A stretch of 52,228 nucleotides of DNA from Thermoanaerobaculia bacterium (GTDB lineage: Bacteria > Acidobacteriota > Thermoanaerobaculia > Multivoradales > UBA5704): assembly GCA_044226625.1 (NCBI GenBank), contig JBGAGQ010000045.1, positions 1 to 52,228 on the forward strand, in the 5' to 3' direction. Position numbers and translations under genes: made by a program. The notes beneath the pieces were generated by a model, which searched no databases, was not told where the DNA came from, and saw nothing but the letters and a program-made list of their open reading frames with translations. Below, in pieces: positions 4,577 to 24,664 of the stretch (the first letter of the stretch is position 1; each line of letters opens with the position of its first letter).

Positions 4577-4621
4577 GGGCCGGCTTAGAAGTCCAAATGA
4601 AGAAGCTCGCATGAGGTGCCC

Positions 4622-7952: not shown

Positions 7953-7957
7953 GCCGC

Positions 7958-8872: not shown

Positions 8873-9089
8873 ACAAGGTGTCTCGAAGCGACTCCCAAGT
8901 CCGTCTCGCGAACAGCACGACAATCGTCGGCAGTCGATCCCCGAGGATCTCCATTCCGCGGAGCCCTCGGTCCATCGCCGGGATGACGAATGCGGCTGGG
9001 GAAAAGACTTGCGCCTCTGACCACGCGGAAAAGCGGGTGTCGATCCCGGGGTGACAGCTTTCGAGCCCGGCGAGCTGGTTGCCGCGAGG

Positions 9090-9330
9090 AGTTTTCTCAG
9101 GGAGCGGAACGCTTTTCTCAGCGCCGAATTCGCTTTGCGGGAGAGAAAGCGGGTTCGGCAGCGGGAGAAGGCCTTTCGGCTCCGGGCGTAGGGGTTTTCT
9201 CGATCAGAAAAGGGTTCGCGCGGGCCGGAAATTCGCTTCGCCGATCGGGAAACGACGTTCTGGCTCGCGAAATCGAATTCGGCGGTCCCGCGAGCGCTCG
9301 CGTCTTTCAGCGAAGCGAATTCGGCGTCGG
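9090..9330. repeat. Degenerate ~21-bp periodic tract in a convergent intergenic region
   Basis: TTTTCTCAG at 9092 and 9113; TTCGGC at 9154 and 9175; GAAA at 9207, 9228, 9249, 9269; CGAATTCGGCG at 9274 and 9316. Confidence 0.55.
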
Positions 9331-9333
9331 GAA

Positions 9334-10569: not shown

Positions 10570-11465
10570 CCAGCCTCACCTGCGCGCAGGGAGGCGGAGG
10601 ACGCCTGGCCGGGGCGGGGCAGGGCGAGCGCGCCGAGCCCCGCCCGTTCGATTTGATCGAGCAGGGTCGGCAGGGCCTCGAGCATCGCGGGCTGGCCGTC
10701 GCTCGTGCGAGCCGCCGAGCCGTCGTGGAGGAGGAGGACGTCGCCCGGCGAGAGGTTTCGGCCGAGACGTCGCGCGATCCGCGCCGGGTCGCGGACCACG
10801 GTGTCGAAAGCGCGTCGGGTCCAAGCGGCGAGGGAGAGCCCATGGCGCGCGAGGACCGACTCGAGCAGGACGCCGCGGAGACCTGCGGGGGCGCGGAACC
10901 AGGCTGGCTGCGCGCCGGACGCCGCGGCGATCGCCTTCTGGCCGGCGCTCACTTCGTGCTCGAGCGCTCGAGTTCCGCGCAGGGAGAAATCGTGGCGGTG
11001 GCGATAGGTGTGGTTCTCGACCGTGTGACCACGGCGGACGATCTCCCGCGCGAGTCGTGGATGCGCCTCCGCCCGCCGGCCGATCAGGAAGAAGCTCGCT
11101 TTCGCCCCTCGTTCGTCCAGTAGGTCGAGGACCCTGGGCGTCACCTCCGGATCGGGACCGTCGTCGAAAGTGAGGTAGACCCCCCGCTCCCCAGCTCCGC
11201 CGTGGAACCGGGTGAGATTCGGGCCGAGCAGGCGGCTCTGCGGGATGAGACCGGAGATGCCGATCGTGAGGTGGTTCGCGGCGAGGGCGCCCAGGATCCA
11301 CGGCCAACGCGCCGGGACCGCGGCGAGCGCGGCGACCGCGGCGGCATGGCTCGCCCAGGTGAAGCGGACGATCGCGCTCCGCCGGTACGGACGGGGCGCG
11401 TTGGGGCGGGGCAGCCCGCCAGGCGCAATCTCCTCCGCCGGGTCGAGGGTGTCCGGAGTCTGCAT
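10566..11465 (-). CDS. Polysaccharide deacetylase (CE4/NodB family) with N-terminal membrane segment
   Basis: YLTFDDGP, ASFFLIG, ENHTYRH, FRAPAG, DVLLLHD; start ATG 11465 (MQTPD). Confidence 0.88.
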   Translation of the reverse strand: MQTPDTLDPAEEIAPGGLPRPNAPRPYRRSAIVRFTWASHAAAVAALAAVPARWPWILGALAANHLTIGISGLIPQSRLLGPNLTRFHGGAGERGVYLTFDDGPDPEVTPRVLDLLDERGAKASFFLIGRRAEAHPRLAREIVRRGHTVENHTYRHRHDFSLRGTRALEHEVSAGQKAIAAASGAQPAWFRAPAGLRGVLLESVLARHGLSLAAWTRRAFDTVVRDPARIARRLGRNLSPGDVLLLHDGSAARTSDGQPAMLEALPTLLDQIERAGLGALALPRPGQASSASLRAGEAG

Positions 11466-11494
11466 GCCGCCGTCGGAATCGGAGACGCCGGGCT

Positions 11495-12970
11495 TCAAGG
11501 GGCCGGCTGTTCTCTTCGCGCGAGATCGAGGAGGGCGGCGCGATCGAGCTTGCCGCGCTCGGTGCGCGGCAGGGCGCGGACCAGCACCACGCTGCGCGGC
11601 ACCTTGTGCGCGGCCAGGCGGGGACGGCACCAGGCGAGCACCTGGTCGGTGGAGAGGGCGCCGTCGCCGCAGGCGATCACCGCGCGCAGTACCTCGCCTC
11701 CCGAAGCGGGGCGGGGCACGCCGAGGACGGCCACCTCGTGGACGCCGCGGAGCTCGCCGAGCACGCCTTCCACCTCGCGCGGGTTGACCTTCTTGCCCTT
11801 GATGTTCACCAGGTCGTCGACCCGGCCGAGCAGCGCGAGCTCACCGTCCTTGCACAGCGCCAGGTCGCTGGTTCGGTAAATCCCGGCGGCGAGGCGCTCG
11901 TCCGGCTCCGGGAGATAGCCGAGCGCGACGGCGGGAGATTTCACGGAGACCACCCCGGCCCCGCGCTCGTCCGGATCGAGCAGGCGGAGCGAGACGCCGT
12001 CGACCGGCGCGCCCACGGTGCCGCGCTCGCCGGCGCCCCCTTCGCGGTCGAAGCAAATCCCCCCGGACTCCGACGAGCCGTAGAACACGTGGATCGGCCG
12101 GCCGAACGTCTCGCGGAAGCGCGCCGCGGTCGCGGGCGGCAAAAGCGCTCCGGCGGTGAGCGCGAGGCGCACCGATCGCGGCCAGGCGGGTGGATGCGAG
12201 GTGCGGAGCAGCGCGTCGAGATACGCCGGCACGGTCGGGAAGATCGTCGCATCGCACGCCTCGGCCGCGGCGAGCGGCTCGACGGGAGAGTCTCCCTCCG
12301 GCAGGACGAGCACCTGGCCGCGCAGGAGCGCCGGCATCGCGAGGCTCGAAAGGCCGTAGGAATGGGTCATCGGCACGGTCGCGACGAAGGCGTCGTCGGG
12401 GCGGATGCCCATCGTCCGGCTGAGCTGCGCGTCGTCGGCGATCAGCGCTTCGGAGGGGGTGGCGATCCCGCGCGGCGCGCCGGTCGAGCCCGAGGTGACC
12501 TTGATCACGGCGAGATCCGGGAGGGTGGGGCGATCGGCTCGTTCCGCCCCGGCCTCGGGGTCCGGCGGGGCGGATGGAACCGGGCGGATCGAGAAGATCT
12601 CCGGTCCGGTGGGCCAGGCGCAGGGACACTCGAGGATCGCGGCCGCGCCCAGCCGCCCGGCGATCCGGAGCCGCTCGGCCTCCGGGGTGCCGGAGTCGAG
12701 CAGCAAGGCGGGACGTCCGAGGGTCCGGAGCGCGAGGAAGCCGGCGAGGAAGCCGGCGCCGTTCGCGGCGGCGAAAGCGATCGGACGCGGCTCCCCCTCT
12801 TCCGAGCGGTCGGCCGCCCCGGCTTCCTCCTCCAACCGCCGGACGACCCCCCGCGCGAGGTCCGCCACCGCGCCGCGATCCGTCCGGCGGGAGCGCGAGA
12901 CCACGATCGCGGCGCGCGGGTCGTCGAGATGGAGCCTTTCGAAGGCTCGGAGAATCGGATCGGTCGGCAT
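11495..12970 (-). CDS. Class I adenylate-forming enzyme (acyl-CoA/acyl-ACP ligase)
   Basis: TSGSTGAPRG, HSYGL, YGSSESGG, YRTSD, GRVDDLVNIKGKKV, LPRTERGK. Confidence 0.9.
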   Translation of the reverse strand: MPTDPILRAFERLHLDDPRAAIVVSRSRRTDRGAVADLARGVVRRLEEEAGAADRSEEGEPRPIAFAAANGAGFLAGFLALRTLGRPALLLDSGTPEAERLRIAGRLGAAAILECPCAWPTGPEIFSIRPVPSAPPDPEAGAERADRPTLPDLAVIKVTSGSTGAPRGIATPSEALIADDAQLSRTMGIRPDDAFVATVPMTHSYGLSSLAMPALLRGQVLVLPEGDSPVEPLAAAEACDATIFPTVPAYLDALLRTSHPPAWPRSVRLALTAGALLPPATAARFRETFGRPIHVFYGSSESGGICFDREGGAGERGTVGAPVDGVSLRLLDPDERGAGVVSVKSPAVALGYLPEPDERLAAGIYRTSDLALCKDGELALLGRVDDLVNIKGKKVNPREVEGVLGELRGVHEVAVLGVPRPASGGEVLRAVIACGDGALSTDQVLAWCRPRLAAHKVPRSVVLVRALPRTERGKLDRAALLDLARREQPAP

Positions 12971-13114
12971 GAACTCGAAACTTAGTTTAACAGGTAGGGA
13001 CCGGAGCCCCGCCCCGCGAGGGGGGCGGGAAGGCCCCGGGGGAAGTGGGCGGCCCCTGGAATGTACGCGCGCCGCCGCGCCGATGCTTCACATTCTGCGG
13101 CAGAATCCGCGACC

Positions 13115-13507
13115 ATGAAGACCGCCCGAACGAAGGACCGAACGGAATCGATCGTCGAACGCCTGCGGCGGATCTGCCTCGCGCTCCCGGAGGCGACCGA
13201 GCGGCCGACCCAAGGCGAGCCGACCTGGTTCGTGGGAGGCAAGAAGACGTTCGCATCGCTCGACGACCATCACCACGGGGCGACCCACCTTTCGGTCTGG
13301 TGCGCCGCGCCCGAGGGGGCGCAGGAGACCTTGATCGCTCTCGCCCCCGAAATCTACTTCCGTCCACCCTACGTCGGGCACCGCGGCTGGATCGGCATCG
13401 TCCTCGACGGCGACGTGGATTGGGACGAGGTCGCCGAGCGGATCGACGAGTCGTATCGGTGTGTGGCGCCGAAACGTCTGGTGTCCGCGCTCGACGGCAG
13501 GGGCTAA
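13115..13507 (+). CDS. MmcQ/YjbR family putative DNA-binding protein
   Basis: LRRICLALPEATE, GEPTWFVGGKKTFA, YFRPPYVGHRGWIGI, IDESYRCVAPKRL. Confidence 0.82.
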   Translation: MKTARTKDRTESIVERLRRICLALPEATERPTQGEPTWFVGGKKTFASLDDHHHGATHLSVWCAAPEGAQETLIALAPEIYFRPPYVGHRGWIGIVLDGDVDWDEVAERIDESYRCVAPKRLVSALDGRG

Positions 13508-14064
13508 CCCGCCGCGTCGAAAGCCTGGCGCAACCAGGAGGTCAGCTCGGCGGTCACCTCGGCAGGGGCGGCCAGGCGGACGCGGTGGGTCATCATGCCG
13601 TTCCAGCTTCCGGCCGGCTCCAACCGCCCGGTCGGCTCCACGCCTTTGAGCACCAAGCCCAGATCGACCCGGTTCGCCGCGGGCTGGAGCAAGCCCAGCT
13701 GCTTTTTCCGGCGCAGGCTCAGATACCCCTTTTTCGGCGCGACTTCGAGGTCGCCTCCGAAGCCGCGTAGCGCGGACATCACGGCCTCGTGGATCGGGCG
13801 GAGGCCTGCTTTCGCCCCCACGTAGAGATCGTCCGCCGGATCTGCGCTCGCCGGAGGCGTCGGGGAATTCGCCTCGAGCGAGCGGAGGGCGATCAGATTC
13901 GCCGAACCGTGCCCGAGGCCATGTTTCTCCTTGAGAAACTTGACGATCTCGCCGTGCTTGGACAATCCACACGAACGGGCGATCGCAAGCCATTCGTCGA
14001 GGCTCTTGCCCGTCTTGGCCTCGAGGTTCGCGATCTGGGATTGAACGGCAGCGGCGACGTCCAT
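13504..14064 (-). CDS. DUF4287 + DUF5655-type domain protein
   Basis: NLEAKTGKSLDEW...KHGEIVKFLKEKHGLGHG; APKKGYLSLRRKKQ...THRVRL...WLRQAF. Confidence 0.75.
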   Translation of the reverse strand: MDVAAAVQSQIANLEAKTGKSLDEWLAIARSCGLSKHGEIVKFLKEKHGLGHGSANLIALRSLEANSPTPPASADPADDLYVGAKAGLRPIHEAVMSALRGFGGDLEVAPKKGYLSLRRKKQLGLLQPAANRVDLGLVLKGVEPTGRLEPAGSWNGMMTHRVRLAAPAEVTAELTSWLRQAFDAAG

Positions 14065-14093
14065 GGGCCGAGCTCCTTTCGCCTTGATCTAGG

Positions 14094-14594
14094 TCATCCG
14101 AACGGATTGTCGTCCGCGGTCGGCCCGTAGACCGAGGGGAGCGGTACGTCGAGCAAACGCAGGTAGACGGTCATCTGACCGCGGTGGTGATACCAGTGAT
14201 TGAGCAGGATGTTACGCAGAACGGCGATACGAGGGAAGGACATGATGGTCTTTCCGTCGCGGGCCATCGACCAGATCCCCATCGCTTTCTCGTCGTCCAT
14301 CGTCCCGAGGATCGCGCGGGCCTCGGCGAGGCTGGTGTCGAGGGCTTCGAGGATCTGGGCGGTGCTGGTCGGCTCCGGGGGCGTGAAGCCCGGCGGCGAG
14401 ACGGGTTCTTCGGCGCTGGCCAGGCGCGGGATCGCCCCCGGAATGTTCGCCATGTGGAGGGCGAGGGTGCCGAGCGACATCGATTTCGGGTGCGGCTTCC
14501 AGCCGAGCTGTGCGTCCGGGACGCGTTCCAGCAAACGACGGGTCGTGACGGCTTCCCGCTCCAGCTCCTCGAGGATGGGCGCGACGAGGCTCAT
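14094..14594 (-). CDS. DinB/YfiT family protein
   Basis: TRRLLERVP, WKPHPKSMSLGTLALH, NHWYHHRGQMTVYLRLLDVPLPSVYGPTAD. Confidence 0.88.
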   Translation of the reverse strand: MSLVAPILEELEREAVTTRRLLERVPDAQLGWKPHPKSMSLGTLALHMANIPGAIPRLASAEEPVSPPGFTPPEPTSTAQILEALDTSLAEARAILGTMDDEKAMGIWSMARDGKTIMSFPRIAVLRNILLNHWYHHRGQMTVYLRLLDVPLPSVYGPTADDNPFG

Positions 14595-14756
14595 GAGATC
14601 TCCTTGCGGTTGGGCACCCCTCGCGAGGCGCCGGAAGGCGAGATCTTAGTCGGTTCCACGTCGTAGTTAGGCGGCCGATCGTTCCGTCGAGCGCGATGCG
14701 TGTCGCACAGGAGGTCAGAGACTCGGTCGTCCGCTACCCTTCCGCGGGCTCGACTC

Positions 14757-15395
14757 TCAGTCCTCGGGCCGGCGAATCTCGCGCGCCCGGACGACGAAGC
14801 GCTGCGGCGCCGAGCCCACGTAATCGAACGGGAAGCAGGTGATGAGGGTGAGGATCGGCTCGGCGCCCGGGGTGAGGACCTCGGTCTCGGTCGGCTCGAC
14901 GACCCGGAGCTCCTCGACCCGATAGTCGAACGTGCCGGCAGGGGTGGAGAGGTGGATCGGGTCGTCGAGCTGGAGCTTGCGCAGGCCGCGAAAGAAGGTG
15001 TCCCGATGGCCCGCGAGCGCGACGTTTCCGGAGTCGCCGGGAAGCGCCGTGCTGGGCACGTGGCCGACCGCACGACGCAGCGTGCGATCGTCCACCCCCT
15101 GGACGACGATCGCGTCGACCGCCGCCGCCGGAATGGTGATCCGGCCGATGACGCCGTCGGCGGCGAGAGCCGCGGCGGCGGACCTCCGGGCCGGGGTCTC
15201 GGCGATCGGAGAAGGCTGGGCCGTCTCCTCCCCGGGCAGGACTTCGGCCAAGCGCGCGCTCTCCATCCGCTGGTAGAGAAAACGGTCGGCCGCCGTCGCG
15301 CCGACCCAGGCGAACGCGAGAAAAGCGATCAGGAACAGCGCTCTTTCGGGCCATCGAGCGCGGTTCCTGATCGCTGGGGCTGCAAGGACGTTCAT
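14757..15395 (-). CDS. Sortase (class D-like)
   Basis: N-terminal TM; GNVALAGHRDTFF (His), LTLITCFPF (TLxTC Cys), QRFVVRA (Arg). Confidence 0.93.
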   Translation of the reverse strand: MNVLAAPAIRNRARWPERALFLIAFLAFAWVGATAADRFLYQRMESARLAEVLPGEETAQPSPIAETPARRSAAAALAADGVIGRITIPAAAVDAIVVQGVDDRTLRRAVGHVPSTALPGDSGNVALAGHRDTFFRGLRKLQLDDPIHLSTPAGTFDYRVEELRVVEPTETEVLTPGAEPILTLITCFPFDYVGSAPQRFVVRAREIRRPED

Positions 15396-15472
15396 GAGGG
15401 GGCGGAAGAGCTTGGGGCCCGGGATCGTCGGATCGGAATCGGCCGTCCGATCGAACCCGGGCCGGGGTGGAG

Positions 15473-16192
15473 TTAGGCCGAGATTCGGCGGCGGTAGAGG
15501 AACGCTCCGGCCGCCAGGGCGACGAGGCCGATCACCAGAAGGGCCGGCTCGGCGCTCGCGGTCTGCGGCAACGTCGAATCGTAGTTGTCGGTTCCGGTCG
15601 CGCCGGTCCGCTCGCTCGCCATCGTGCCGCCCATCGCGGTGGTTCGGTCCGTCGTCGAACCGTTCATTCCCGTGGTGGTCCCGGTCGTGTGATCCATGGT
15701 GTCATTGGCCATCGGCTCGGTGGCTTGGTTCCGACCCATGGTGTCCGTGTCGGTCGAATCGGTCATCGGTTCCATCGAGTTGCTGCCGGTGGTCCCGGTC
15801 GGCTGACGGGGATTTGCCGGCGACTGGTAGTTGCCCGTGGTGCCGACCACCGTGGTGCGCGACTCGCCGGTCTGGCCGTTGGTCCCCGGAGCGCCGACGT
15901 TGGTCGGCGTGCGCGGCGTCAGGCTCGAGCCCTCCGCGACGGCGAGGGCCTCGTAGCCGCCCGTATCCAGGGCGCGATAGGTCACGCTGACGCGATCACC
16001 TTCCTTGAGATTCGCCGGCTTGTCGGTGCCCGAGTTCATCACCAGATCGAGCCGCATGTTGGAGTCCGTCTGAACCACGAGGTTGTAGGCCGAGGACGAG
16101 ATGACGCGACCCATGGCGGTCTGCGTGTCCTGCGCCTGGGCCACGCCCACGGCGAGCAGCAGGCTGAAGAGAAGAATCGGTATCCGCTTCAT
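15473..16192 (-). CDS. Secreted protein with LPXTG-like (LPQTA) sorting signal; probable substrate of the adjacent sortase
   Basis: Signal peptide MKRIPILLFSLLLAVGVAQA from ATG 16192; small beta-rich domain; Thr/Gly/Met-rich linker; LPQTA + hydrophobic ALLVIGLVALAAGAFLY + RRR tail. Confidence 0.88.
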   Translation of the reverse strand: MKRIPILLFSLLLAVGVAQAQDTQTAMGRVISSSAYNLVVQTDSNMRLDLVMNSGTDKPANLKEGDRVSVTYRALDTGGYEALAVAEGSSLTPRTPTNVGAPGTNGQTGESRTTVVGTTGNYQSPANPRQPTGTTGSNSMEPMTDSTDTDTMGRNQATEPMANDTMDHTTGTTTGMNGSTTDRTTAMGGTMASERTGATGTDNYDSTLPQTASAEPALLVIGLVALAAGAFLYRRRISA

Positions 16193-16300
16193 GGAAAATC
16201 TCCTTTCGCAAGCGGGCAAGGAGGGGGGCCACCTTTTGGAAGGTTTTTCGGATCGGCTCTGCGGCGCGTCCCCTCGCTGCACCTTTCGGCTCGCTATAGG

Positions 16301-16316
16301 AGCAAGGCCGGTGCCA
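16301..16316 (-). promoter_or_regulatory. Sigma-54 (-24/-12) promoter for the LPQTA protein-sortase pair
   Basis: Minus strand reads TGGCAC-CGGCC-TTGCT (GG-N10-GC), about 110 bp upstream of ATG 16192. Confidence 0.8.
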
Positions 16317-16585
16317 CCTCGGCCCTCCTCGGGGTCAGGGTCGCTCCGCCCCTCGAGCTCAACAGATCCCGGGAAAGCTTGCCGACGCCCGAAACGGGCT
16401 GGCATTAAATGCAGGGCGGCCCTTGCCGAGATGCGGGAGATGCCCCCGTTTCGCGCGTCCGGGGCACCTAGGAAAGAATAGACGTAGAGCATCGAGGTCG
16501 ATCGAGCGGACGAACCGCGATCGAATTCTTCGGATCCCGTCGCGCCGCTTCCGAGCGGCCGCGGATCGAACGAGGGGACCAGCGT

Positions 16586-18883
16586 ATGGCCGAACCGGTG
16601 AGCGCAACGAATCTGAGAGGGGGGAGCGCGGGACTGATCGTGGGCCTGCTGATCCTCGCCGCCTCGTTTGGCCTCGCCACGGCGCGGCTTCGCCCGCCCG
16701 CACCCAAGCCGGCCGACGCGCCGGAGGGCGAGTTCTCGGCCGGGCGCGCTCGCGCGGTGCTCACCGAGCTGGTTGGCAACGGCGAGCCGCACCCGCTGGG
16801 GAGCGCCGCCAACGCGCAGGTCCGCGAGCGGGTGCTGCTCGCGTTTCGTCGCCTGGGCTACGAGCCGGAGGTCGTGCCCGGTTTCGTCTGCCGTTCCGGG
16901 GGGCCCTGCGCCACGGTTCAGAACGTGGTCGCTCGGCTCGCCGGAAATTCCAAGCCGGGCGAGGCGATTCCGAAGGCGGTCATGCTGTCCGCCCATTACG
17001 ACTCGGTGCCGAGCGGACCGGGGGTCTCGGACGACCTCACCGGCGTGGCGGCGATCCTGGAGATCGCGCGCCAGATGAAGGCTCTGCCGCCGCCCGACAA
17101 CCCGGTGGTCTTCCTGATCGACGACGGCGAAGAGCCGGGGTTGCTCGGTGCCGAGGCTTTCGTCCGAACTCCGCTGGCCCGAGAGATCGGCGCGGTGATC
17201 AACCTCGAGGCACGGGGGACCTCCGGTCCGGGCCTGATGTTCCAGACCCATCATTGGAACGGCTCGTGGATCCCGCTGTTCGCCCGCGCGGTGTCGCGCC
17301 CGGTCGCCTCATCGGTCTTCATCACGCTCTACGAACGGCTGCCGAACGACACGGACTACACGGTCTTCCAGCGGGCGGGCATTCCGGGCTTCAACTTCGC
17401 CTTGATCGGTGACGCCGAGCGCTACCATCTTCCTCTCGACAACCTGGCCAACGCCTCCACCGCAAGCTTGCAGCACATGGGAGAGAGCGCCTCGGAGCTC
17501 GCCCGAGCGCTCGCCAAGGCCCCGCTCGTGATGCCCAAGCGCGCCCCGGCGGTCTTCTTCGACGTGTTATCGCTCGGGCTCGTCCGCTGGCCGGCCGCCG
17601 CGACCCTGCCGCTCGCGATCCTCGCGCTGGGCCTCGTCCTTTGGTCCTGCCGAAGGGTTTGGATCCGTCGCGCGGACGGAGTCGGAGGTACCCTGCTCGC
17701 GGCGCTCGTTGCACTCATCTCGATCGCCGCCGCCGTGGGGCTCTCTTTGGTCTTCGTCAACGCCCAGAAAGTGGCGGGTGGCCTCGCCGTCGCCTGGCCG
17801 GCGCAACCCGGTACGCTTCTCGTGGCGCTGGGCGCGCTGTCCGCTTTCGGCGTTCTCGGAGTCTCGTCCACCGTCGGCCGCGGTGGCCGCTCTGCGCGCG
17901 TCTGGACGGGGATCTGGCTCGTCTGGGGTGTCTTGGGGCTGGTCACCGGACTGATGCTTCCCGGATCGAGCTATTTGTTCATCGTGCCGGCCCTCGTCGC
18001 CGGCCTCGTCGGATCGGTCGTGGACCCGAGCCGTTCAGCCGTTGCGTCGCTGCTGCCGCTCGCCGTGGCGGGGGTCCTTTGGGCGCCGCTCGTGCTGTTG
18101 GTCTTCGCCGGCCTGGGCGCTCCGGGGATTCCGGCCCTCGCCGCCGTCATCGGCCTGTTCGCGATGCCGCTCGTGCCCCTCCTCGTCGGCACCCGCCGGC
18201 CGGGGCTCTGGGCGGGTGCTTTCGGCCTGGTCGCGGTCGTTGCGGCCTTTCTGGTGCCGGCGACCACGCGCGCCTCGGCGGAGGCGCCGAAGCGGCTTGC
18301 GATCTATTACCACCTCGATGCCGATGCGGGCACCGGTCGCTACGTCCTGCTCGGGGACTTGCGACGGGGCCAACCCCTGCCTCCCTCGCTCGCCGCCGCG
18401 GCTCCGTTCACCCTGGGGCAGACGTTTCCGTGGACCTCGCCGCAATCGCAAGGATTCGTGGCACCCGCTCCGGCCGTCGAGCTCGTGCCGCCGGCGTTCG
18501 AAGTGCTCGCCGACGAGACGCGGCCGGACGGCCGCCATCTGTCGCTGCGGCTCTCCTCTCCGCGCGGCGCGCCGGTGCTCCGGTTGCAGGTCCCGGCGTC
18601 CGCCGAGGTCCGCACCGCCCGGATGGAGGACGAGGAGATCCCCAAACAACCGGACGGCAAGCTGGCTCGCCAGGGGGATTGGCTCGCGTTCCAATGCCTC
18701 TCGATGCCCCCGGAAGGGATCGTCCTCGAGCTCGTGTTGGGCGCGACGGCGCCTTTCGACGCCTACATCGCCGACCGTTCGCTCGGGTTGATCCCGGCCG
18801 CCCGGACGGTGGCGGCCGCCCGCACGCCGGAGTGGATCGCCGATGGCGACTCGATCGTGGTCAGTCGCAAAGTCCACATCTGA
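16586..18883 (+). CDS. M28 family metallopeptidase with multi-pass membrane region (ERMP1-like)
   Basis: LSAHYDSVP, GVSDDLTGVA, DGEEPGLLGA, INLEARG, PNDTDYTVF, YHLPLD; followed by about 8 hydrophobic helices. Confidence 0.9.
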   Translation: MAEPVSATNLRGGSAGLIVGLLILAASFGLATARLRPPAPKPADAPEGEFSAGRARAVLTELVGNGEPHPLGSAANAQVRERVLLAFRRLGYEPEVVPGFVCRSGGPCATVQNVVARLAGNSKPGEAIPKAVMLSAHYDSVPSGPGVSDDLTGVAAILEIARQMKALPPPDNPVVFLIDDGEEPGLLGAEAFVRTPLAREIGAVINLEARGTSGPGLMFQTHHWNGSWIPLFARAVSRPVASSVFITLYERLPNDTDYTVFQRAGIPGFNFALIGDAERYHLPLDNLANASTASLQHMGESASELARALAKAPLVMPKRAPAVFFDVLSLGLVRWPAAATLPLAILALGLVLWSCRRVWIRRADGVGGTLLAALVALISIAAAVGLSLVFVNAQKVAGGLAVAWPAQPGTLLVALGALSAFGVLGVSSTVGRGGRSARVWTGIWLVWGVLGLVTGLMLPGSSYLFIVPALVAGLVGSVVDPSRSAVASLLPLAVAGVLWAPLVLLVFAGLGAPGIPALAAVIGLFAMPLVPLLVGTRRPGLWAGAFGLVAVVAAFLVPATTRASAEAPKRLAIYYHLDADAGTGRYVLLGDLRRGQPLPPSLAAAAPFTLGQTFPWTSPQSQGFVAPAPAVELVPPAFEVLADETRPDGRHLSLRLSSPRGAPVLRLQVPASAEVRTARMEDEEIPKQPDGKLARQGDWLAFQCLSMPPEGIVLELVLGATAPFDAYIADRSLGLIPAARTVAAARTPEWIADGDSIVVSRKVHI

Positions 18884-18901
18884 AACGCTCAAACCCCGCC
18901 T

Positions 18902-18929
18902 GGGGGACGCCGAACCGTCCCCCTTTTCT
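18902..18929 (+). terminator. Rho-independent terminator after the M28 peptidase
   Basis: GGGGGACG-ccgaac-CGTCCCCC followed by TTTTCT. Confidence 0.75.
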
Positions 18930-19016
18930 CAAAGCAAGACACTGTTAGGTGAGGATCGGTAAGCCGCCCACGCCCGGGGCGGCATTCTTGTGCTCTCGAC
19001 CGAGGTGTCCTTCAAC

Positions 19017-20369
19017 ATGACATTGCCACTCCGCGCCGATTCCGGCGCTTACGACGTCCTGGGCGTCGGGTTCGGCCCGTCGAACCTCGCTCTCGCGGTT
19101 GCGCTCGAAGAAGCGCCCGAGGCGTCTTCTCTGTCCTCTCTCTTCCTCGAGACGAAGCCCGGTTGTGCCTGGCATCCGGGGATGTTGCTCGAGGAATCGA
19201 CCATCCAGATCTCCGTGCTCAAGGATCTCGCGACGATTCGGAACCCCCAGAGCCGCTTCACCTTCTTGAGCTACTTGAAGGAGAAGGGGCGCCTGTTCGA
19301 GTTCCTGAACCTGCGCGACCTGTTCCCGAGCCGCATCGAGTTCAACGACTACCTGTCCTGGGTCGCCGAGGGGCTCTCCGATCGAGTGCGCTGGGGGACC
19401 GAGGTCACCGCGGTCCATCCCGTGCGCGGAGAGGATGCGGACACCGTGGAGCTCCTGCGGGTCGAAGCGCGGGACCTCGCGACCGGCGAGCGTCGGGAAG
19501 TTCTCGCGCGGAACCTCGTGCTGGCGACCGGCGGTGTGCCCGCGATCCCGTCGCCGCTTCGGCTGGTCCCGGGGGGGCGGGCGATCCACACGGTCGAGTT
19601 CATGCAGCGGATTCGCTCCGATTTTCCCGATCGGAACGCGCGCTATCGGTTCGCCGTCGTGGGCGCGGGGCAGAGCGGCGCGGAGCTGTTCAGCTACCTG
19701 CTCACCCACTACCCGAACGCCGAAGTGACGGCGACGCTGCGCAAGTTCTCGTACAAGCCGGTCGACGACAGCCATTTCACCAACGAGATCTTCTTCCCGA
19801 GCAAGGTCGACTGGCTTTTCTCTCTCTCCGACGAGAAGCGCGCCCGGGTGCTCGACATGTGCCGCGACGTCAATTACGCGGTGGTCGACGCGCCGCTCAT
19901 CCGACAGATCTACCGTCAGCTCTACGACGAGCGGGTCGAAGGGAAAGACCGCGCGAAGATCCTGCCGTTCCTCGAGCTTCGAGAGATCGAGGAGCGGGGG
20001 ACTACCGTGCGCGCGCGCTTCCACAACTCGCTCGAGGAGCGCGATCACGAGCTCGAGGTCGACGCCTTGATCGTCGCGACCGGGTATCACTGGCCTTCGG
20101 ACCACCCGTTGCTCGCCGAGCTCGCGGTTCATCTCCTGCGCGACCCGGCGCCCGGCGGTGGTTACGAGTACCGGATCCGCCGCGACTATCGGGTTGAGTC
20201 GGATCCGAGCTTCCTGCCCGGCGTCTACCTGCAGGGATTCTCCGAGCGCCGGCACGGCGCGAGCGAAACGGTCCTGTCCCTGCTGCCGATCCGCGCCGGC
20301 AACATCCTCGATTCCCTGGTCGAAGCCCGCCGCCCTTCCGAGGTCGACAGGGAAGCGGTCGCGGTCTAA
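19017..20369 (+). CDS. Flavin-dependent N-hydroxylating monooxygenase (L-ornithine N5-/L-lysine N6-oxygenase, PvdA/SidA/KtzI/IucD family)
   Basis: GVGFGPSNLALA (FAD), WHPGMLL, QISVLKDL, VGAGQSGAE (NADPH), DDSHFTNEIF, NYAVVD, LIVATGY, HGASETVLS. Confidence 0.93.
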   Translation: MTLPLRADSGAYDVLGVGFGPSNLALAVALEEAPEASSLSSLFLETKPGCAWHPGMLLEESTIQISVLKDLATIRNPQSRFTFLSYLKEKGRLFEFLNLRDLFPSRIEFNDYLSWVAEGLSDRVRWGTEVTAVHPVRGEDADTVELLRVEARDLATGERREVLARNLVLATGGVPAIPSPLRLVPGGRAIHTVEFMQRIRSDFPDRNARYRFAVVGAGQSGAELFSYLLTHYPNAEVTATLRKFSYKPVDDSHFTNEIFFPSKVDWLFSLSDEKRARVLDMCRDVNYAVVDAPLIRQIYRQLYDERVEGKDRAKILPFLELREIEERGTTVRARFHNSLEERDHELEVDALIVATGYHWPSDHPLLAELAVHLLRDPAPGGGYEYRIRRDYRVESDPSFLPGVYLQGFSERRHGASETVLSLLPIRAGNILDSLVEARRPSEVDREAVAV

Positions 20370-20388: not shown

Positions 20389-22479
20389 GTGCATCTTCAG
20401 AGGCTCGATCCGGCGAAGTTCGAAAGCGAATACGGCATCCAGATCCAGATGCTCTACCCCTGGGAAGGGGTGGTGGTGCCGCCGTTCGGCTCGGCCTGGG
20501 CGGTCGTTCCGCCGCTCGGCTCGACCAAGCACCATACGCATCAGGAAGGGGAGACCTTTTTCGTCGCCCGAGGTCGCGGAACGATGCGCGTGGGCGATGA
20601 CACGTCCGAGATCGGTTCGGGCGATGTGATCTTCCTGCCGCCGTTCGATCAGCACACGCTCACCAACACGTCCGAGACCGAGGACCTGCTCTTTCTCACC
20701 TGTTGGTGGGAGGACCGGAAGCTCTGGGCCGACGCGGCGCCGAAGGCGGACGGTGCGACCGAGCGGCCGGCCCGTACGCTGGTCTCGGCGGCGCCGCCGA
20801 CGCCGAACGGCGACCTGCACCTCGGCCATCTGTCGGGTCCGTATCTCGCCGGAGACGTCATCGCGCGCTACCTCCGCCTGCGCGGCGTCGAGGCTCGCTA
20901 CGTCTTCGGCTCGGACGACAACCAGAGCTACGTGAAGACCAACGGCGAGCGGATCGGCCTGGGGCCGAACGAGGCGGCCGACTACCTCGCGGGTGAGATC
21001 GCCAAGACCCTCGAGGCGGCCGAGATCGAGCTCGACAAGTTCACCCGGCCGAACGCCTCCCCCTACCACCGCGACCTGGTGCAGGCGTTCTTCCGGCGCC
21101 TGTACGAATCCGGCCAGCTGGTCGAGCGCGAAGCGCCGTCACCGTATTGCCCGCGTTGCGACCTCTATCTCTATGAGGCGCACATCCGCGGCGGCTGCCC
21201 GCACTGCGGCGCGATGTCCGGGGGCAACTGCTGCGAGGAATGCTGCCGCCCGAACGACTGTATCGACCTGATCGATCCCGTGTGTACCCATTGCGGCGGC
21301 ACGCCGGAGTCGCGCGGCTACAAGCGGCTCTATTTCCCGCTGTCGCGCCATGCCGCGACGCTCTCCGAGCTGCGCCTCACGACCGCGATGAACCCGCGCC
21401 TGCGCTCGCTCTGCGAACAGGTGACGGAGGCGGGGCTGCCCGACATCGCGGTGACCCATCCCGCCGACTGGGGGATTCCGGTGCCGGTCGAGGGGTACGA
21501 GGCGCAGCGAATCTGGGTCTGGTGCGAGATGGCGCCCCGTTATCTGGCCTACGCCCGCGAGGTCTGCGACGTCGCGGGAGTCCCCGCGGCGGAAGCGTCC
21601 TGGGAGCGTTTCTGGAAATCGCCCGAGGCGAGCGTGGTCCAGTGCTTCGGCTCCGACAACGGTTTCTTCTACGGCCTGCTCGTACCGGCGATGCTTAGGG
21701 CATTCGATCCCGCGCTTCGGCTTCCCGAGGCGCTGGTGATGAACGAGTTCTATCGCCTGGACGGCAAGAAGTTCTCGACCAGCCGCCAGCACGCGATCTG
21801 GGGGCGGGAGATGGTCGCCGACGTACCCGCCGACGAGATGCGGTTCTATCTCGGCTGGAGCGCTCCGGAGGTCGAGGGAACCAACTTCACCCGGACCGAG
21901 TTCGAAGAGACCATCGAGCGCGAGGTGCGCGGAGGTTTCGGCGGCTGGCTCCGTTCGCTCGGCCAGCGGATCGAGGCGCGCCACGGCGGGCTCGTGCCCT
22001 GGACCGGAGACTGGACGGACGACCATCGGCGGTTCTATCGCCGGATCGAGCAGCTTTCGGCCGAGATCGCGGAAGGGTACGAGCCGGGGACTTTCTCGCT
22101 CCAACGGGCCACCCGTGGGCTCGCCGCGCTGGTGCGGGAGGCGCGGCGGTTCGCCGCCGCCGAGAGCGGCTGGCAGAGGGTCGAGGCGCGCGGCGAGGAG
22201 CGGCGCACCGGGACCGCTCTCGAGCTGCTCGCGGCCAAACAGCTGGCGATCCTCGCGAGCCCTCTAATGCCCAGGTTCGGGGTGGATCTTTGGCGCGCGC
22301 TCGGATACGAGACGCCGCTCTCGGCGCAGCGATTCGAAGCGCGGCCCGATTGGGTCCCCGGAGGGCAGCGGATCGGCGATCTCGTCGGAGCGCTACCGCG
22401 ACGCCAGCCCCGATCCCAGGAGTCTCCGGACGCGGCCGTGCCGGCCGCCGTCGAGGGAGGACCAGGCGCTTCCGCCTAG
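20389..22479 (+). CDS. Cupin / methionyl-tRNA-synthetase-like fusion (hydrazine synthetase type, Spb40/PyrN/Tri28 architecture)
   Basis: GTG 20389 after GGAGA; N-terminal cupin (HHTHQEGETF...GDVIFLPPFDQH); MetRS-like core PTPNGDLHLGH, GSDDNQSY, CxxC knuckles (CPRC, CPHC, CEEC, CTHC), DWGIPVP, KKFSTSR. Confidence 0.88.
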   Translation: MHLQRLDPAKFESEYGIQIQMLYPWEGVVVPPFGSAWAVVPPLGSTKHHTHQEGETFFVARGRGTMRVGDDTSEIGSGDVIFLPPFDQHTLTNTSETEDLLFLTCWWEDRKLWADAAPKADGATERPARTLVSAAPPTPNGDLHLGHLSGPYLAGDVIARYLRLRGVEARYVFGSDDNQSYVKTNGERIGLGPNEAADYLAGEIAKTLEAAEIELDKFTRPNASPYHRDLVQAFFRRLYESGQLVEREAPSPYCPRCDLYLYEAHIRGGCPHCGAMSGGNCCEECCRPNDCIDLIDPVCTHCGGTPESRGYKRLYFPLSRHAATLSELRLTTAMNPRLRSLCEQVTEAGLPDIAVTHPADWGIPVPVEGYEAQRIWVWCEMAPRYLAYAREVCDVAGVPAAEASWERFWKSPEASVVQCFGSDNGFFYGLLVPAMLRAFDPALRLPEALVMNEFYRLDGKKFSTSRQHAIWGREMVADVPADEMRFYLGWSAPEVEGTNFTRTEFEETIEREVRGGFGGWLRSLGQRIEARHGGLVPWTGDWTDDHRRFYRRIEQLSAEIAEGYEPGTFSLQRATRGLAALVREARRFAAAESGWQRVEARGEERRTGTALELLAAKQLAILASPLMPRFGVDLWRALGYETPLSAQRFEARPDWVPGGQRIGDLVGALPRRQPRSQESPDAAVPAAVEGGPGASA

Positions 22480-22621
22480 GTTCCGAGTCGAATCCAAAAC
22501 TTTATGCTCCGAGATAGATCCAAGATCGAATCGAGAGCCGTACCTACAAGGAGCCGGGCTTGGAATCAGGCAGTATCGAGCTGTCCGAGTCTACCGCGCC
22601 TGCGCTGGGAGAAAGACGACG

Positions 22622-23071
22622 ATGTCCGAAAACCTGTTCGGCAGCGCTTCGCCGGAAGAAGCGTCCTGGGGCTACCAACTCATCCTCGATTGTTTCGGCT
22701 GCGACGTGGACACCTGCTGCGACCTCGAAAAAGGCTACGAATTTCTCGATAAGATCTGCGTCCACCTTCATATGACGAAGCAAACGCAACCCTATATCTT
22801 CAAGACGTGTGAAACGACGTTCCCTGGTAAACCGGGTTACAGCGGCTGGATTCCGATCATCGAGAGCGGCATCCAGATCCACACTTCGGCGAACAACCAC
22901 TTCATCAGCATCGACGTCTACTCGTGCAAGGTGTTCGACCTCGACGAGACGGTGGCTTTCGTTCAGAAGTGGTTCAACCCGAAGCGGATCGACACCCAGT
23001 TCTTCCACCGGGGCAAGGGCTACCTGCAGAAGTCGTTCGCCCAGGACGTGGCGGTCGGCGCCTCGCACTAA
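22622..23071 (+). CDS. Pyruvoyl-dependent decarboxylase, AdoMetDC/SpeD fold, substrate unknown
   Basis: WGYQLILDCFGC, GYSGWIPIIES (E81-S82 autocleavage site), GIQIHT, ISIDVYSCK; SD-like GGGAGA upstream. Confidence 0.85.
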   Translation: MSENLFGSASPEEASWGYQLILDCFGCDVDTCCDLEKGYEFLDKICVHLHMTKQTQPYIFKTCETTFPGKPGYSGWIPIIESGIQIHTSANNHFISIDVYSCKVFDLDETVAFVQKWFNPKRIDTQFFHRGKGYLQKSFAQDVAVGASH

Positions 23072-23194
23072 GGCGGCCCGCCTGCGTCAAAAGGATCGGG
23101 CGCCGCGCGAGCGGCGCCCGGAACCACGCAATCGAGATGGGACCGGATCGGGTTGGCGTGTGCCTTCCGGTTCGCGCCGAACCGGTTCTCGCCT

Positions 23195-24664
23195 CTACCG
23201 CTCCACCCAGTAGTTCGGCGCCTCTTTCGTGATCACCACGTCGTGGGCGTGCCCTTCCTTCAATCCCGCCGGGGAGATCCGGACGAAGCGCGCCTTGACG
23301 CGCAGCTCCTCGACCGTCGCGCAGCCGGCGAGGCCCATGCCTGAACGCAGGCCTCCGGTCAGCTGAGGAAGAAGCTGATGCACGGTCCCTTTGTGCGGCA
23401 CCATCCCCTCGATCCCCTCGGGAACCAGCTTCGATAGGCTGCCGCTCCCCTCCTGGAAGTAGCGCTCCGCGCTGCCGCGGGCCATGGCGGACAGCGATCC
23501 CATGCCCCGATAGGCCTTGTAAGTTCGCCCCTGGTAGAGAATCGTCTCGCCCGGGCTCTCCTCGGTGCCGGCGAGCAGCGAGCCGATCATCACGGAATGG
23601 GCGCCTGCCGCGAGCGCCTTGGTGAGGTCGCCCGAGAACTTGATGCCGCCGTCGGCGATCACCGGTACGCCGCTCTCCTCGGCGGCCCGGGCGCAATCCT
23701 GGATGGCGGTCACCTGAGGGACGCCCGCGCCGGTGACCACGCGGGTGGTGCAGATGCTTCCCGGACCGATCCCCACCTTCACGGCGTCGACGCCGCGCTC
23801 GATCAGCGCCCGGGTCCCTTCGGCGGTCGCGACGTTGCCGACGACCAATCGAACTTCCGGGAAACGTTCGCGCAGCTTGGCGGCGGCGTCGAGGACGCCC
23901 TGGCTGTGGGCATGGGAAGAGTCGAGCACCAGCAGGTCGGCCTTCGCTTTGACGAGCGCCGCCGCGCGTTCGAGGAAATCGCCCGACGAGCCGACCGCGG
24001 CCCCGACGCGGAGACGTCCCAGCTCGTCCTTGCAGGCGTTCGGGTACTGCATCATCTTCTGGATGTCCTTGACGGTGATCAGGCCCTTCAGGTTTCCCGC
24101 GCCGTCGACGACCAGAAGCTTCTCGATCCGATGGCGGTGGAGGAGCGTCTTCGCCTGCTCGAGCGTCGTCCCTTCGGGCACCGTGATCAGGTTCTCGCGC
24201 GTCATCAGATCGCCGATCCGGCGATCGAGGTCCTCCTCGAAGCGGAGGTCGCGGTTGGTCAGGATGCCCACCAGATGACCGGCCGAGTCGGTGACCGGAA
24301 CGCCGGAGATCTTGAAATGGGCCATCAGCGTATGGGCGTCGCGGATCGACTGGTCGGGACCGATCGTCACCGGATCGACGATCATGCCGGCCTCCGAGCG
24401 CTTCACCTTGTCGACCTCTTCGGCCTGCAGCTCGACCGGCAGGTTCTTATGGACGATTCCGATCCCGCCCTCTTGCGCGAGCGCGATCGCGAGGCGCGAT
24501 TCGGTCACGGTGTCCATCGCCGCTGAGAGGATCGGGATGTTGAGCGTGATGCCGCGGCAGACGACCGTCTTCAAGTCCACGTCGTTGGGATGGGTCGAGG
24601 ACAGCCCCGGAACGAGGGAGACGTCGTCGAAGGTCAGCGCGAGCCTGGGTTCTTCGGAAAACAT
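23195..24664 (-). CDS. guaB: IMP dehydrogenase with CBS pair
   Basis: [49 protein letters not shown]. Confidence 0.97.

Follow-up and report, generated by a model that had tools for sequence, protein, structure and literature searches.

The neofunctionalised SpeD homologues described so far are primary polyamine enzymes, i.e. ornithine or arginine decarboxylases. In its accessible text, the study of Li et al. (2023, PMC10407285) names S63, H68 and C83 of the T. maritima S-adenosylmethionine (SAM) decarboxylase (AdoMetDC) as essential, and describes a completely conserved Pro after His-Thr-Trp in bona fide AdoMetDCs. The same portion of that paper (Li, Liang, Phillips and Michael, JBC 2023, PMC10407285) presents SpeDC as a single clade of pyruvoyl-dependent L-ornithine decarboxylases derived from AdoMetDC, which carry four diagnostic residues (Gln, Thr, Phe and Tyr) in the central region, decarboxylate L-ornithine, are reported there as inactive on SAM, Arg and Lys, and come from genomes described as lacking canonical ADC and ODC; phage examples of SpeDC were published in PNAS (2023, PMC9992855). 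In the human AdoMetDC, Glu247 is given as ribose-binding in the available part of another report (PMC3686867). Hydrazine formation has been described for the hydrazinoacetic-acid (HAA) cassette Spb38/Spb39/Spb40 (with Tri26-28 and Azs homologues), which, according to the accessible portions of the two sources (PMC13755311, PMC8664883), comprises a Lys N6-hydroxylase, a DAO-like oxidase and a cupin/MetRS-like hydrazine synthetase. The openly searchable texts on HAA cassettes mention no SpeD-fold protein, and the openly searchable literature, subscription papers and supplements aside, contains no paper in which hydrazine synthetases are connected to AdoMetDC or to pyruvoyl enzymes.

The window analysed here is a 52,228-nt stretch of DNA from a Thermoanaerobaculia bacterium, in which an open reading frame at 22622..23071 (+) starts with ATG and encodes a SpeD-like protein of 149 aa. 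It is preceded by a GGAG-type ribosome-binding site, and four aligned loci of the same genus keep its start. The protein scores 55.8 bits against Pfam AdoMet_dc (PF02675), above the gathering score of 25, and its AlphaFold model (pLDDT 81.6) has class-1b AdoMetDCs, with their alpha-beta-beta-alpha sandwich fold, as best Foldseek matches (2iii, 1vr7 and 1tlu; E 6e-10 to 5e-9), with TM-scores normalised to the target of 0.80 for 2iii and 0.85 for 1vr7. By its translation, Pfam assignment, fold match and family alignment, the gene product is a class-1b AdoMetDC-fold proenzyme of the pyruvoyl type, belonging to an 'ESG/Cys-rich' family of the Acidobacteriota. In a phmmer alignment, S82, H87 and C102, located in the motifs E81-S82-G83, I86-H87-T88 and D98-V-Y-S-C102, lie opposite S63, H68 and C83 of T. 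maritima AdoMetDC, and ESG faces ESH, i.e. Gly83 replaces the canonical His. The codons of E81-S82-G83 occupy 22862..22870 (+); alignment with the T. maritima E-S63-H predicts self-cleavage at E81-S82, upon which S82 would become the pyruvoyl group. Seven of the 149 residues are Cys (C24, 27, 32, 33, 46, 63 and 102). The initial annotation had described a kept Glu-Ser site with downstream His (IHT) and Cys (DVYSC), ESG in place of ESH and a Cys-rich protein, and the translation agrees with it, residue numbering included.

Upstream, 20389..22479 (+) encodes a two-domain protein (Pfam Cupin_2 and tRNA-synt_1g) with the cupin and MetRS-like architecture of a hydrazine synthetase (HS). Its probable start is the GTG at 20389, the longest ORF starting at 20158; it falls below all MetRS equivalog cut-offs, and its best PDB matches are 9vq4/9l8v (324 bits), together with the cupin plu4264. 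The gene at 18990..20369 (+) encodes a flavin-dependent Lys/Orn-type N-monooxygenase (NMO; Pfam Lys_Orn_oxgnase, 357.5 bits), for which MbtG (328 bits) and KtzI and SidA (about 298 bits) are the best PDB matches. Among 12 PDB matches, it scores 283–328 bits to four of five amino-acid N-hydroxylases and 223 bits to a second Lys 6-monooxygenase, compared with 131–161 bits to three diamine hydroxylases. This similarity argument, and it is no other kind of argument, disfavours the earlier proposal that the SpeD-like enzyme supplies a diamine to the N-hydroxylase. Since the NMO is of the amino-acid type, the alpha-carboxylate should still be there after N-hydroxylation. Contig C6, from the genome of the window, encodes an orthologue of the DAO-like FAD oxidase (63% identity) beside a 5193-aa NRPS, which oxidase completes the HAA-type trio begun by the NMO and the cupin-MetRS protein of the window.

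The HS and SpeD-like genes are separated by 142 bp (22480..22621, +) containing blocks conserved in five same-genus sequences. The initial annotation had called this gap more AT-rich and suggested that it could hold a promoter for the SpeD-like gene. The composition was correct (54.9% G+C vs 68.0% for the window), whereas the promoter found no backing in a pattern scan, which detected neither a terminator nor a sigma-70-like promoter in the gap, the promoter search covering sigma-70-type sites. No Rfam match at E<=1 was obtained in 22300–23300, and a riboswitch or known RNA in the gap was therefore discarded. A GC-rich hairpin at 23097..23120 (-), in the space separating the SpeD-like gene from the convergent guaB, has 10 GC pairs and a T-rich tail and is terminator-like on the minus strand, but it is a weak candidate, since one such site is about the mean for shuffled sequences (1.0). 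One metatranscriptome library (run X2) yielded contigs with pieces of the NMO, HS and SpeD-like genes, in which DNA carry-over is possible; none of them covers 22392–22585 or bridges the gap, and they speak neither for nor against a joint transcript.

Members of the SpeD-like family share 60–93% identity, vs 42–87% for the neighbouring enzymes, and were found only in MAGs of Acidobacteriota. Their hosts are soil and water bacteria. E81, S82, H87 and C102 are present in 62 of the 62 members and G83 in 61. Five extra cysteines not present in canonical enzymes are nearly as constant (C24 and C32 in 62, C27 and C63 in 61, and C33 in 59 of the 62). The Cys signature of the family reads Cys-x2-Cys-x4-Cys-Cys. 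Active-site residues do not differ between genomic contexts, in all of which a dN/dS of 0.03–0.5 indicates purifying selection on the gene. In the family tree, built on only 138 columns and with 32 of its 68 inner branches unresolved, HS-linked members occupy basal branches. Two degenerate paralogues, P0122 and P0123, are without the Ser, His or Cys.

The ESG motif is not peculiar to the window protein and marks a large clade. At least 1575 proteins make up this wider clade, named members of which come from Omnitrophota and Patescibacteria, and the window protein is 35–49% identical to its aligned representatives. It contains fusions of an N-terminal canonical SpeD to a C-terminal ESG domain, as well as phage versions of 118–133 aa. 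Taxa (Omnitrophota, candidate phyla radiation and phages), fusion architecture and phage protein sizes are common to this clade and to SpeDC as reported; set against published descriptions only, these likenesses suggest that the wider ESG clade is probably the SpeDC ornithine decarboxylase clade. The invariant Q85, T88, F94 and Y100 of the SpeD-like family (62/62) follow the SpeDC diagnostic residues in type and order and may be their counterparts. Genomic contexts in the wider clade are mostly housekeeping, e.g. dus-maf-X-nuoABCD and thiGH...leuS. A Pfam scan of 40 representative neighbour proteins (10 + 30) revealed no polyamine genes, and 80 metagenome loci of the clade contained no NMO, DAO or NRPS gene and a single weak MetRS-like match. 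In phages, the neighbourhood of the ESG genes includes DNA methylase, Mom-family, dCTP deaminase and clamp-loader genes, which offer no substrate clue; a search of a phage collection with queries P0001 and P0391 returned matches only in MaAM05, an unannotated jumbo-phage record and Sinorhizobium phages. Compared with the wider clade, the SpeD-like family has a short insertion and invariant residues of its own, and its long branch and several differing near-active-site positions suggest that its specificity may have shifted again.

Linkage was examined in 61 species loci of the SpeD-like gene. In 39 of them the synthetase gene lies within 10 kb, and in 35 it immediately precedes the SpeD-like gene on the same strand; NMO, DAO and NRPS/PKS genes are nearby in 34, 27 and 21, respectively. 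At least one of these four types of gene accompanies the SpeD-like gene in 51 loci and none in 10, while NMO, synthetase and DAO all flank it in 20. In most of the 27 DAO-bearing loci, the DAO gene is convergent and 10–217 nt downstream. Among 41 relatives, 18 carry both the SpeD-like and a full-length synthetase gene, 2 the SpeD-like gene only, none the full-length synthetase only, and 21 neither. The synteny in 35–39 of 61 loci and the co-occurrence in all 18 synthetase-bearing relatives uphold the functional link with the adjacent hydrazine-forming genes that had been proposed from the window. This link is not obligatory. Five loci are arranged iscS-mnmA-SpeD-like, vs iscS-mnmA-NMO-HS-SpeD-like-DAO in sister species, and at least five species have lost the NMO and synthetase genes yet kept the SpeD-like gene under purifying selection. 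Of the 20 genomes without a local synthetase, 12 have none anywhere at E<=1e-60, and the SpeD-like gene is also found between megasynthase genes of an NRPS-PKS operon, such operons being without NMO and HS. These losses, the synthetase-free genomes, the dN/dS values and the NRPS-PKS operons together argue for a function independent of NMO and HS.

We tentatively favour, with a confidence somewhat short of even, the reading that the SpeD-like protein is a neofunctionalised basic-amino-acid decarboxylase which was recruited to a hydrazine/NRPS pathway and no longer acts on SAM. Its substrate would be a free basic amino acid, most likely L-ornithine and possibly L-lysine. In the proposed scheme, the family would descend from the ESG clade of SpeD homologues, would have become a distinct conserved subfamily in Thermoanaerobaculia and Holophagales, with its five near-invariant extra Cys and short insertion, and would then have been recruited into a natural-product pathway. 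The self-processed pyruvoyl enzyme would convert L-Orn (or L-Lys) to a diamine, the NMO, hydrazine synthetase and DAO-type oxidase would form a hydrazino-acid unit, and both products may enter a lipopeptide built by the NRPS, which, like the oxidase, would be supplied from the other contig in the window's genome. This fate of the diamine, like the choice of substrate and the self-cleavage, is what we infer. Replacement of a missing PLP-dependent Arg/Orn decarboxylase was ruled out as the reason for the gene's presence, since PF02784 matches occur in 39 of the 41 relatives (1–5 per genome), with no inverse relation to the SpeD-like gene. The window's genome has no PF01276 match and two PF02784-type decarboxylases, and with these already there a plain ornithine/arginine decarboxylase is not obviously needed.

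Another reading, which we judge very improbable, is that of an ordinary SAM decarboxylase that has drifted in sequence and feeds dcSAM to large membrane-bound spermidine-synthase-like proteins. Pfam does put the protein in AdoMet_dc, its homologues are publicly annotated as S-adenosylmethionine decarboxylase, and a genome-wide search for speE and a canonical speD returned two PF01564 (spermidine synthase) matches, on contigs C126 and C83, and no PF02675 match other than the SpeD-like gene itself; the window's contig has no PF01564 match, in line with the earlier remark that the window lacks a spermidine synthase gene. However, the site of the Pro conserved in bona fide AdoMetDCs is occupied by A90, in a Ser-Ala-Asn facing the canonical Trp-Pro-Glu (family consensus Ser-Ala-Asn-Asn, with the position after A90, N91 in the window protein, varying in the family), and the Glu after this Pro, which we take to be the counterpart of human Glu247, is replaced as well. 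The score against the NCBIfam equivalog TIGR03330 is 42.7 bits, below the cut-off of 75.65. PF01564 matches occur in 35 of the 41 relatives regardless of the SpeD-like gene, being present in 17 of the 21 without it and absent from two that carry it (G009 and G019), whereas a canonical SpeD (127 bits) is restricted to two others, G025 and G030, the relatives with the best PF01564 matches. Since the Pro is missing, the equivalog cut-off is not reached and there is no co-variation with spermidine-synthase-like genes, a role as SAM decarboxylase is unlikely, and a housekeeping enzyme of this type was discarded as the main reading. On the same three grounds the protein is very probably neofunctionalised, as the initial annotation had supposed.

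The substrate may instead come from the cassette itself. The SpeD-like protein would then be a pathway-specific decarboxylase of N-hydroxy-Lys/Orn or of an N-N-linked Lys/Orn-amino-acid conjugate, yielding a diamine-hydrazine block before or instead of DAO cleavage. We hold this to be doubtful, although the gene's position directly 3' of the synthetase with a convergent DAO gene, the basal HS-linked branches, the lack of relatives with a full-length synthetase alone, the residues and cysteines private to the family and the retained alpha-carboxylate all favour it; such a substrate also fits better with the window genus, in which the gene stays with NMO-HS and the NRPS is elsewhere. Against it stand the genomes and NRPS-PKS operons in which the gene persists, catalytic residues intact, without synthetase, the five loci that lost NMO-HS, the uniformity of the active site across contexts and the poor resolution of the tree. 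The idea of a decarboxylase acting on what the hydrazine enzymes produce was thereby weakened, and is kept as a rival to the preferred basic-amino-acid decarboxylase. In its boldest form, which we consider more doubtful still, a new pyruvoyl decarboxylase acting on N-N-bonded or N-hydroxylated Lys/Orn would be a fourth, undescribed step of hydrazine biosynthesis that gives a decarboxylated hydrazine-diamine for the NRPS, the five-Cys site aiding substrate handling or protection of the pyruvoyl group. Hydrazines react with pyruvoyl groups, and it is conceivable, if improbable, that decarboxylation is not the main role of the protein. Its pyruvoyl group or five-Cys cluster would then serve in the reversible capture of a hydrazine as a hydrazone (as carrier or in self-protection) or as a metal/redox site, or the protein would act as a prozyme-like regulatory subunit. 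The extra cysteines, the unusually high conservation relative to the neighbours and the existence of degenerate paralogues, as in prozyme systems, are consistent with such roles, but the decarboxylase catalytic residues are invariant throughout the family and the gene is kept where no hydrazine synthetase is detectable.

The natural products of Acidobacteriota are almost unexplored, and the SpeD-like subfamily is a near-constant companion of the hydrazine cassette and NRPS/PKS genes in uncultured members of this phylum. If the proposed recruitment is true, i) a pyruvoyl decarboxylase would join the enzymology of N-N bond pathways, ii) the ESG motif combined with the Cys signature would be a simple mining marker for one family of hydrazine/NRPS clusters, and iii) the family would be a traceable case of a polyamine-type enzyme recruited into a secondary-metabolite cassette and outliving the loss of that cassette.

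The SpeD-like protein has its fold in common with the bona fide class-1b SpeD/SpeH enzymes of T. maritima and A. aeolicus (1tlu, 1vr7, 2iii), as well as the Glu-Ser cleavage site, the His at +5 and the Cys at +20, but these enzymes have ESH, Trp-Pro-Glu and a SpeE partner, in contrast to ESG, Ser-Ala-Asn and no SpeE partnership. SpeDC, as far as described in the accessible text, likewise has the class-1b fold, keeps the Ser, His and Cys and has lost the SAM-type Pro; it differs in lacking the five extra conserved Cys and the insertion, in belonging to genomes without ADC/ODC, whereas the window's genome has its PF02784 decarboxylases, and in its polyamine setting, the SpeD-like gene having a hydrazine/NRPS context and no polyamine gene cluster. 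The SpeDA proteins (AdoMetDC-derived L-arginine decarboxylases of Sulfolobus, Marinimicrobia and pelagiphage HTVC201P) are also neofunctionalised and without the conserved Pro, but no agmatinase is linked to the SpeD-like gene of the window. A probable SpeDA, speH_1 of Microcystis phage MaAM05, adjoins speB and speE, keeps ESH and falls in a sequence group ('AESH...FSCK') apart from the ESG clade. The Spb38/39/40 cassettes, in the accessible portions of their descriptions, consist of the same three enzyme types as the conserved neighbours of the SpeD-like gene; they are from Actinomycetota, whereas the loci described here are from Acidobacteriota and have a fourth gene between the synthetase and the oxidase.

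The SpeD-like gene (22622-23071, + strand) starts with ATG and stays open for 149 codons. Its G+C contents of 0.49, 0.37 and 0.81 at codon positions 1, 2 and 3 are typical for coding sequence in a window of 68% G+C, and the ATG and a purine-rich stretch upstream are kept in four aligned loci of the same genus. The deduced protein matches the Pfam family AdoMet_dc with 55.8 bits (cut-off 25), and its AlphaFold model (pLDDT 81.6, with 30 homologues as input) has the AdoMetDC fold, the best structure matches being the A. aeolicus and T. maritima enzymes (TM 0.80–0.85, target-normalised). The processing triad is intact: S82, H87 and C102 align (phmmer) with S63, H68 and C83 of the T. maritima enzyme, which are essential for self-processing and catalysis (Li et al. 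2023, PMC10407285). Translation bore out the features reported in the initial annotation, i.e. ESG in place of ESH, IHT, DVYSC and seven cysteines. Its description of the gene as an orphan also held, this being the sole PF02675 match in the 6.6-Mb assembly, and, in line with its remark on spermidine synthase, the window's contig has no PF01564 (spermidine-synthase-type) match.

At E ≤ 1e-3 the search, limited in protein length, gave 201 homologues. Those listed (120) share 62–92% identity with the SpeD-like protein and, where the source gives a name, come from Acidobacteriota or Thermoanaerobaculia MAGs. A survey with two family-specific peptide patterns, taking one genome per GTDB species, gave 61 species loci, 59 titled as Acidobacteriota, Thermoanaerobaculia or Holophagales MAGs and two only as 'uncultured bacterium'. 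In these and the window protein (62 members), E81, S82, Q85, H87, T88, F94, Y100, C102, C24 and C32 are invariant, G83, C27 and C63 are each present in 61, and C33 in 59. Unlike canonical AdoMetDC, the family has a Cys-x2-Cys-x4-Cys-Cys stretch past the first strand and a short insertion, ending in Lys-Thr-Cys-Glu, ahead of the cleavage strand. Some paralogues, which share about 53% identity with the window protein (G019:C1:1343794-1344207 in a related genome, locus L042; proteins P0122 and P0123), are nested within the family in the tree and no longer carry the Ser of the cleavage site and/or the His and Cys of catalysis: in P0122 the Ser is replaced by Gly and the Cys is missing, and in P0123 (284 aa) Arg replaces the His and the Cys is again missing. 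Such proteins could be prozyme-like subunits without activity, or copies in decay.

The markers of SAM-type enzymes are lost. Against the NCBIfam equivalog model for class-1b SAM decarboxylase the protein scores 42.7 bits, below the cut-off of 75.65. According to Li et al. (PMC10407285), all bona fide AdoMetDCs have a Pro past the catalytic His, and homologues that decarboxylate arginine have lost it. The window protein has Ala90 at this position, and the following position varies across the family. We take the Glu that follows the canonical Pro to correspond to human Glu247. A ribose-binding role has been described for human Glu247 (PMC3686867). Among 41 related genomes, only G025 and G030 encode a canonical SpeD (127 bits to PF02675). 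They also have the best PF01564 matches, and the two genes of G030 share a contig, at a distance of 4.5 kb. PF01564 matches occur in 35 of the 41 (18 of the 20 relatives with the SpeD-like gene versus 17 of the 21 without it), and PF02784 decarboxylases in 39, with no inverse relation to the SpeD-like gene in the 41 relatives. Judged by sequence and co-occurrence, the SpeD-like protein is unlikely to be a SAM decarboxylase.

Directly preceding the SpeD-like gene is a gene for a cupin and MetRS-like protein (20389-22479, the start being probable), a layout that is the published architecture of hydrazine synthetases (HS; review PMC13755311), and a Lys/Orn-type N-monooxygenase (NMO) is encoded upstream at 18990-20369. 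Neighbours at the 61 species loci were counted by tblastn with fixed identity thresholds up to 10 kb from the gene, and the counts are lower bounds because many contigs are short. HS was detected at 39 loci (directly upstream on the same strand at 35), NMO at 34, a DAO-family FAD oxidase (DAO) at 27 and NRPS/PKS domains at 21; 51 loci had at least one of these and 10 had none. The DAO gene is mostly convergent to the SpeD-like gene, 10–217 nt downstream. In the window an IMP dehydrogenase gene adjoins it downstream, a neighbour found within the genus only, and the DAO orthologue of this genome (63% identity) lies on another contig, C6 (genes at 521-16102 (-), 16203-16862 (-) and 17850-19181 (+); see also loci L044/L045), beside genes for an alpha/beta hydrolase and a 5193-aa NRPS, which begins with a fatty-acyl-AMP-ligase-like domain and contains several C, A and T domains. 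The pathway is therefore in two loci in this genome, and the NMO/HS/SpeD-like cassette of the window probably feeds the C6 NRPS. A bifunctional aspartokinase-homoserine dehydrogenase gene follows the DAO orthologue on C6. Directly upstream of NMO in the window is a gene for a 765-aa M28-family peptidase (16586-18883, + strand). At 15 of the 61 loci a homologue lies within 10 kb of the SpeD-like gene, on one side or the other and without a fixed spacing.

The SpeD-like gene is present in 20 of the 41 relatives and full-length HS (E ≤ 1e-190) in 18, all of which also have the SpeD-like gene; since the relatives are not independent, this co-occurrence is a pattern and not a statistic. The relatives with the SpeD-like gene and without full-length HS, G013 and G023, belong to one genus, and in G013 the gene is flanked by two NRPS-PKS megasynthase genes. 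Eight relatives (G008, G009, G018, G019, G026, G027, G034 and G037) have 2–5 cupin/MetRS-like or MetRS-like-only paralogues and one SpeD-like copy each (two in G019); they seem to run several hydrazine-type pathways, with the decarboxylase in one only.

The 142-bp gap upstream of the SpeD-like gene (22480-22621), noted earlier as relatively AT-rich, is present and has 54.9% G+C. Scans of it found no known RNA family (Rfam), sigma-70-like promoter or terminator. It contains blocks conserved within the genus (loci L024, L025, L027 and L028), one just upstream of the ribosome-binding site, and the gap could be a regulatory element. Expression data came from a single metatranscriptome library of a biofilm (run X2), whose contigs do not show strand or transcript ends and may include DNA carry-over. 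Pieces with 1–6 differences each match NMO (19078-19254 and 19495-19782), HS (four pieces between 20420 and 22371) and the SpeD-like gene (22701-23007); no X2 contig spans the HS/SpeD-like gap.

A genome-wide search of the 20 genomes, of unknown completeness, that lack HS within 10 kb of the SpeD-like locus found HS elsewhere in 8 and none at E ≤ 1e-60 in 12. At five such loci (L053, L054, L058, L073 and L080) the SpeD-like gene directly follows iscS-like and mnmA genes; eight sister species have the order iscS-mnmA-NMO-HS-SpeD-like with DAO convergent, and the iscS-mnmA-SpeD-like order is what loss of NMO and HS would leave. In a quick maximum-likelihood tree (138 columns, 32 of 68 inner branches unresolved), HS-linked sequences are basal and unlinked ones nested among them. 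The dN/dS ratios, computed on 116 codons, are 0.08 for L054-L058, 0.03–0.20 for two pairs from L092, L100 and L106, loci without HS (L100's genome has HS on another contig), and 0.10–0.37 for HS-linked pairs. Purifying selection thus acts on the gene in loci without HS, and it therefore has a selected function independent of the hydrazine enzymes.

A scan of 1.84 billion cluster representatives with the SpeD-like protein gave 827 matches (E ≤ 1e-3), the entire Acidobacteriota family being one representative. The next relatives (26–49% identity, 43 distant representatives aligned) form two groups: i) 'ESG/ESS', with the core Gly-Leu-Ser-Gly-Trp ... Glu-Ser-Gly-Ile-Gln-Ile-His-Thr ... Tyr-Ser-Cys, and ii) 'Ala-Glu-Ser-His ... 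Phe-Ser-Cys-Lys'. The window protein is one of the former. The wider ESG clade has at least 1575 members (E ≤ 1e-10). Its named members are Omnitrophota and Patescibacteria, the fusions P0277 and P0283 join an N-terminal canonical-type SpeD to a C-terminal ESG domain, and members occur on 185 viral contigs; in the 80 of these examined, the proteins are mostly 118–133 aa, with ESG at the site in 78. The closest ESM-Atlas clusters, as a lead only, are from Omnitrophota, viruses and Chloroflexota. In size, taxa, fusions and phage proteins the clade matches the published SpeDC, pyruvoyl L-ornithine decarboxylases derived from AdoMetDC: Li et al. (PMC10407285) placed over 1000 homologues in one clade, with members in Omnitrophota, Chloroflexota and the candidate phyla radiation, and described SpeD-SpeDC fusions whose ornithine decarboxylation depends on the C-terminal Ser. 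Freshwater phage SpeDC enzymes have 117–122 aa (PMC9992855). Set beside SpeDC by published description, the ESG clade is probably the same clade.

Neighbours in the wider clade are housekeeping genes (dus-maf-X-nuoABCD; thiG/thiH ... leuS), with no polyamine genes among 40 neighbour proteins scanned and hydrazine genes at 0 of 80 metagenome loci. The housekeeping neighbours and lack of polyamine genes weigh against a simple polyamine role. Many high-GC metagenome contigs (among loci L115-L155, e.g. L115:6214-9941) have the fixed array dus, maf, SpeD-like, nuoA, nuoB, nuoC, nuoD, which places an ESG-clade gene beside those of respiratory complex I. On 70 of the 80 viral contigs (L194-L273) a gene for about 310 aa, of two sequence families, directly follows the ESG-type homologue (e.g. 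L207:3381-4337 and L234:3387-4316); the one representative scanned from each matched a DNA N6/N4 methylase in one family and a Mom-family protein in the other. Genes for dCTP deaminase/dUTPase, RegA and clamp loaders lie nearby, and the question is raised whether the phage versions feed DNA modification and not polyamine pools. Microcystis phage MaAM05 (L193, MW495066.1, 246315-249093) has a four-gene set of a canonical speD-type gene, an 'AESH...FSCK' SpeD homologue, speE and speB; following the reasoning of Li et al. 2023, this set would amount to a full route from arginine to spermidine.

We tentatively favour a role of the SpeD-like protein as a free-amino-acid decarboxylase that provides a diamine for an NRPS product shared with the hydrazino acid. 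Self-cleavage of the proenzyme at the E81-S82 bond would leave the alpha chain with an N-terminal pyruvoyl group. A basic amino acid (ornithine first, lysine second) would bind to this group as a Schiff base through its alpha-amino group and lose CO2; the resulting diamine and the hydrazino acid from NMO, HS and DAO would go into one NRPS product. The active-site residues do not differ between genomic contexts, and these unchanging residues, the probable descent from ornithine decarboxylases and the retention of the gene without NMO and HS suggest one substrate in all contexts, which would favour a free amino acid. The main rival, that the substrate is N-hydroxy-Lys/Orn or an N-N conjugate, fits the tight placement beside HS and the family-specific residues, but genomes without HS keep the gene, and we consider it less likely. 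For a free alpha-hydrazino acid, direct decarboxylation seems unfavourable on chemical grounds, since by our reasoning its terminal hydrazine nitrogen would trap the pyruvoyl group as a stable hydrazone. The initial annotation had proposed diamine supply to the adjacent hydrazine-forming enzymes. For NMO this is unlikely, as by PDB scores it resembles amino-acid N-hydroxylases (283–328 bits with MbtG, KtzI, SidA and PvdA; 223 bits with a second Lys 6-monooxygenase) more than the three diamine hydroxylases in the PDB (131–161 bits).

In the open-access main texts searched, we found no paper linking hydrazine synthetases with AdoMetDC-fold or pyruvoyl enzymes, and the available text of the neofunctionalisation paper of Li et al. 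2023 (PMC10407285) does not mention Acidobacteria, monooxygenases or hydrazine. We class the SpeD-like family as one more branch of SpeD that was neofunctionalised or recruited, and its gene as a conserved fourth gene of the HAA-type hydrazine cassette in Acidobacteriota.
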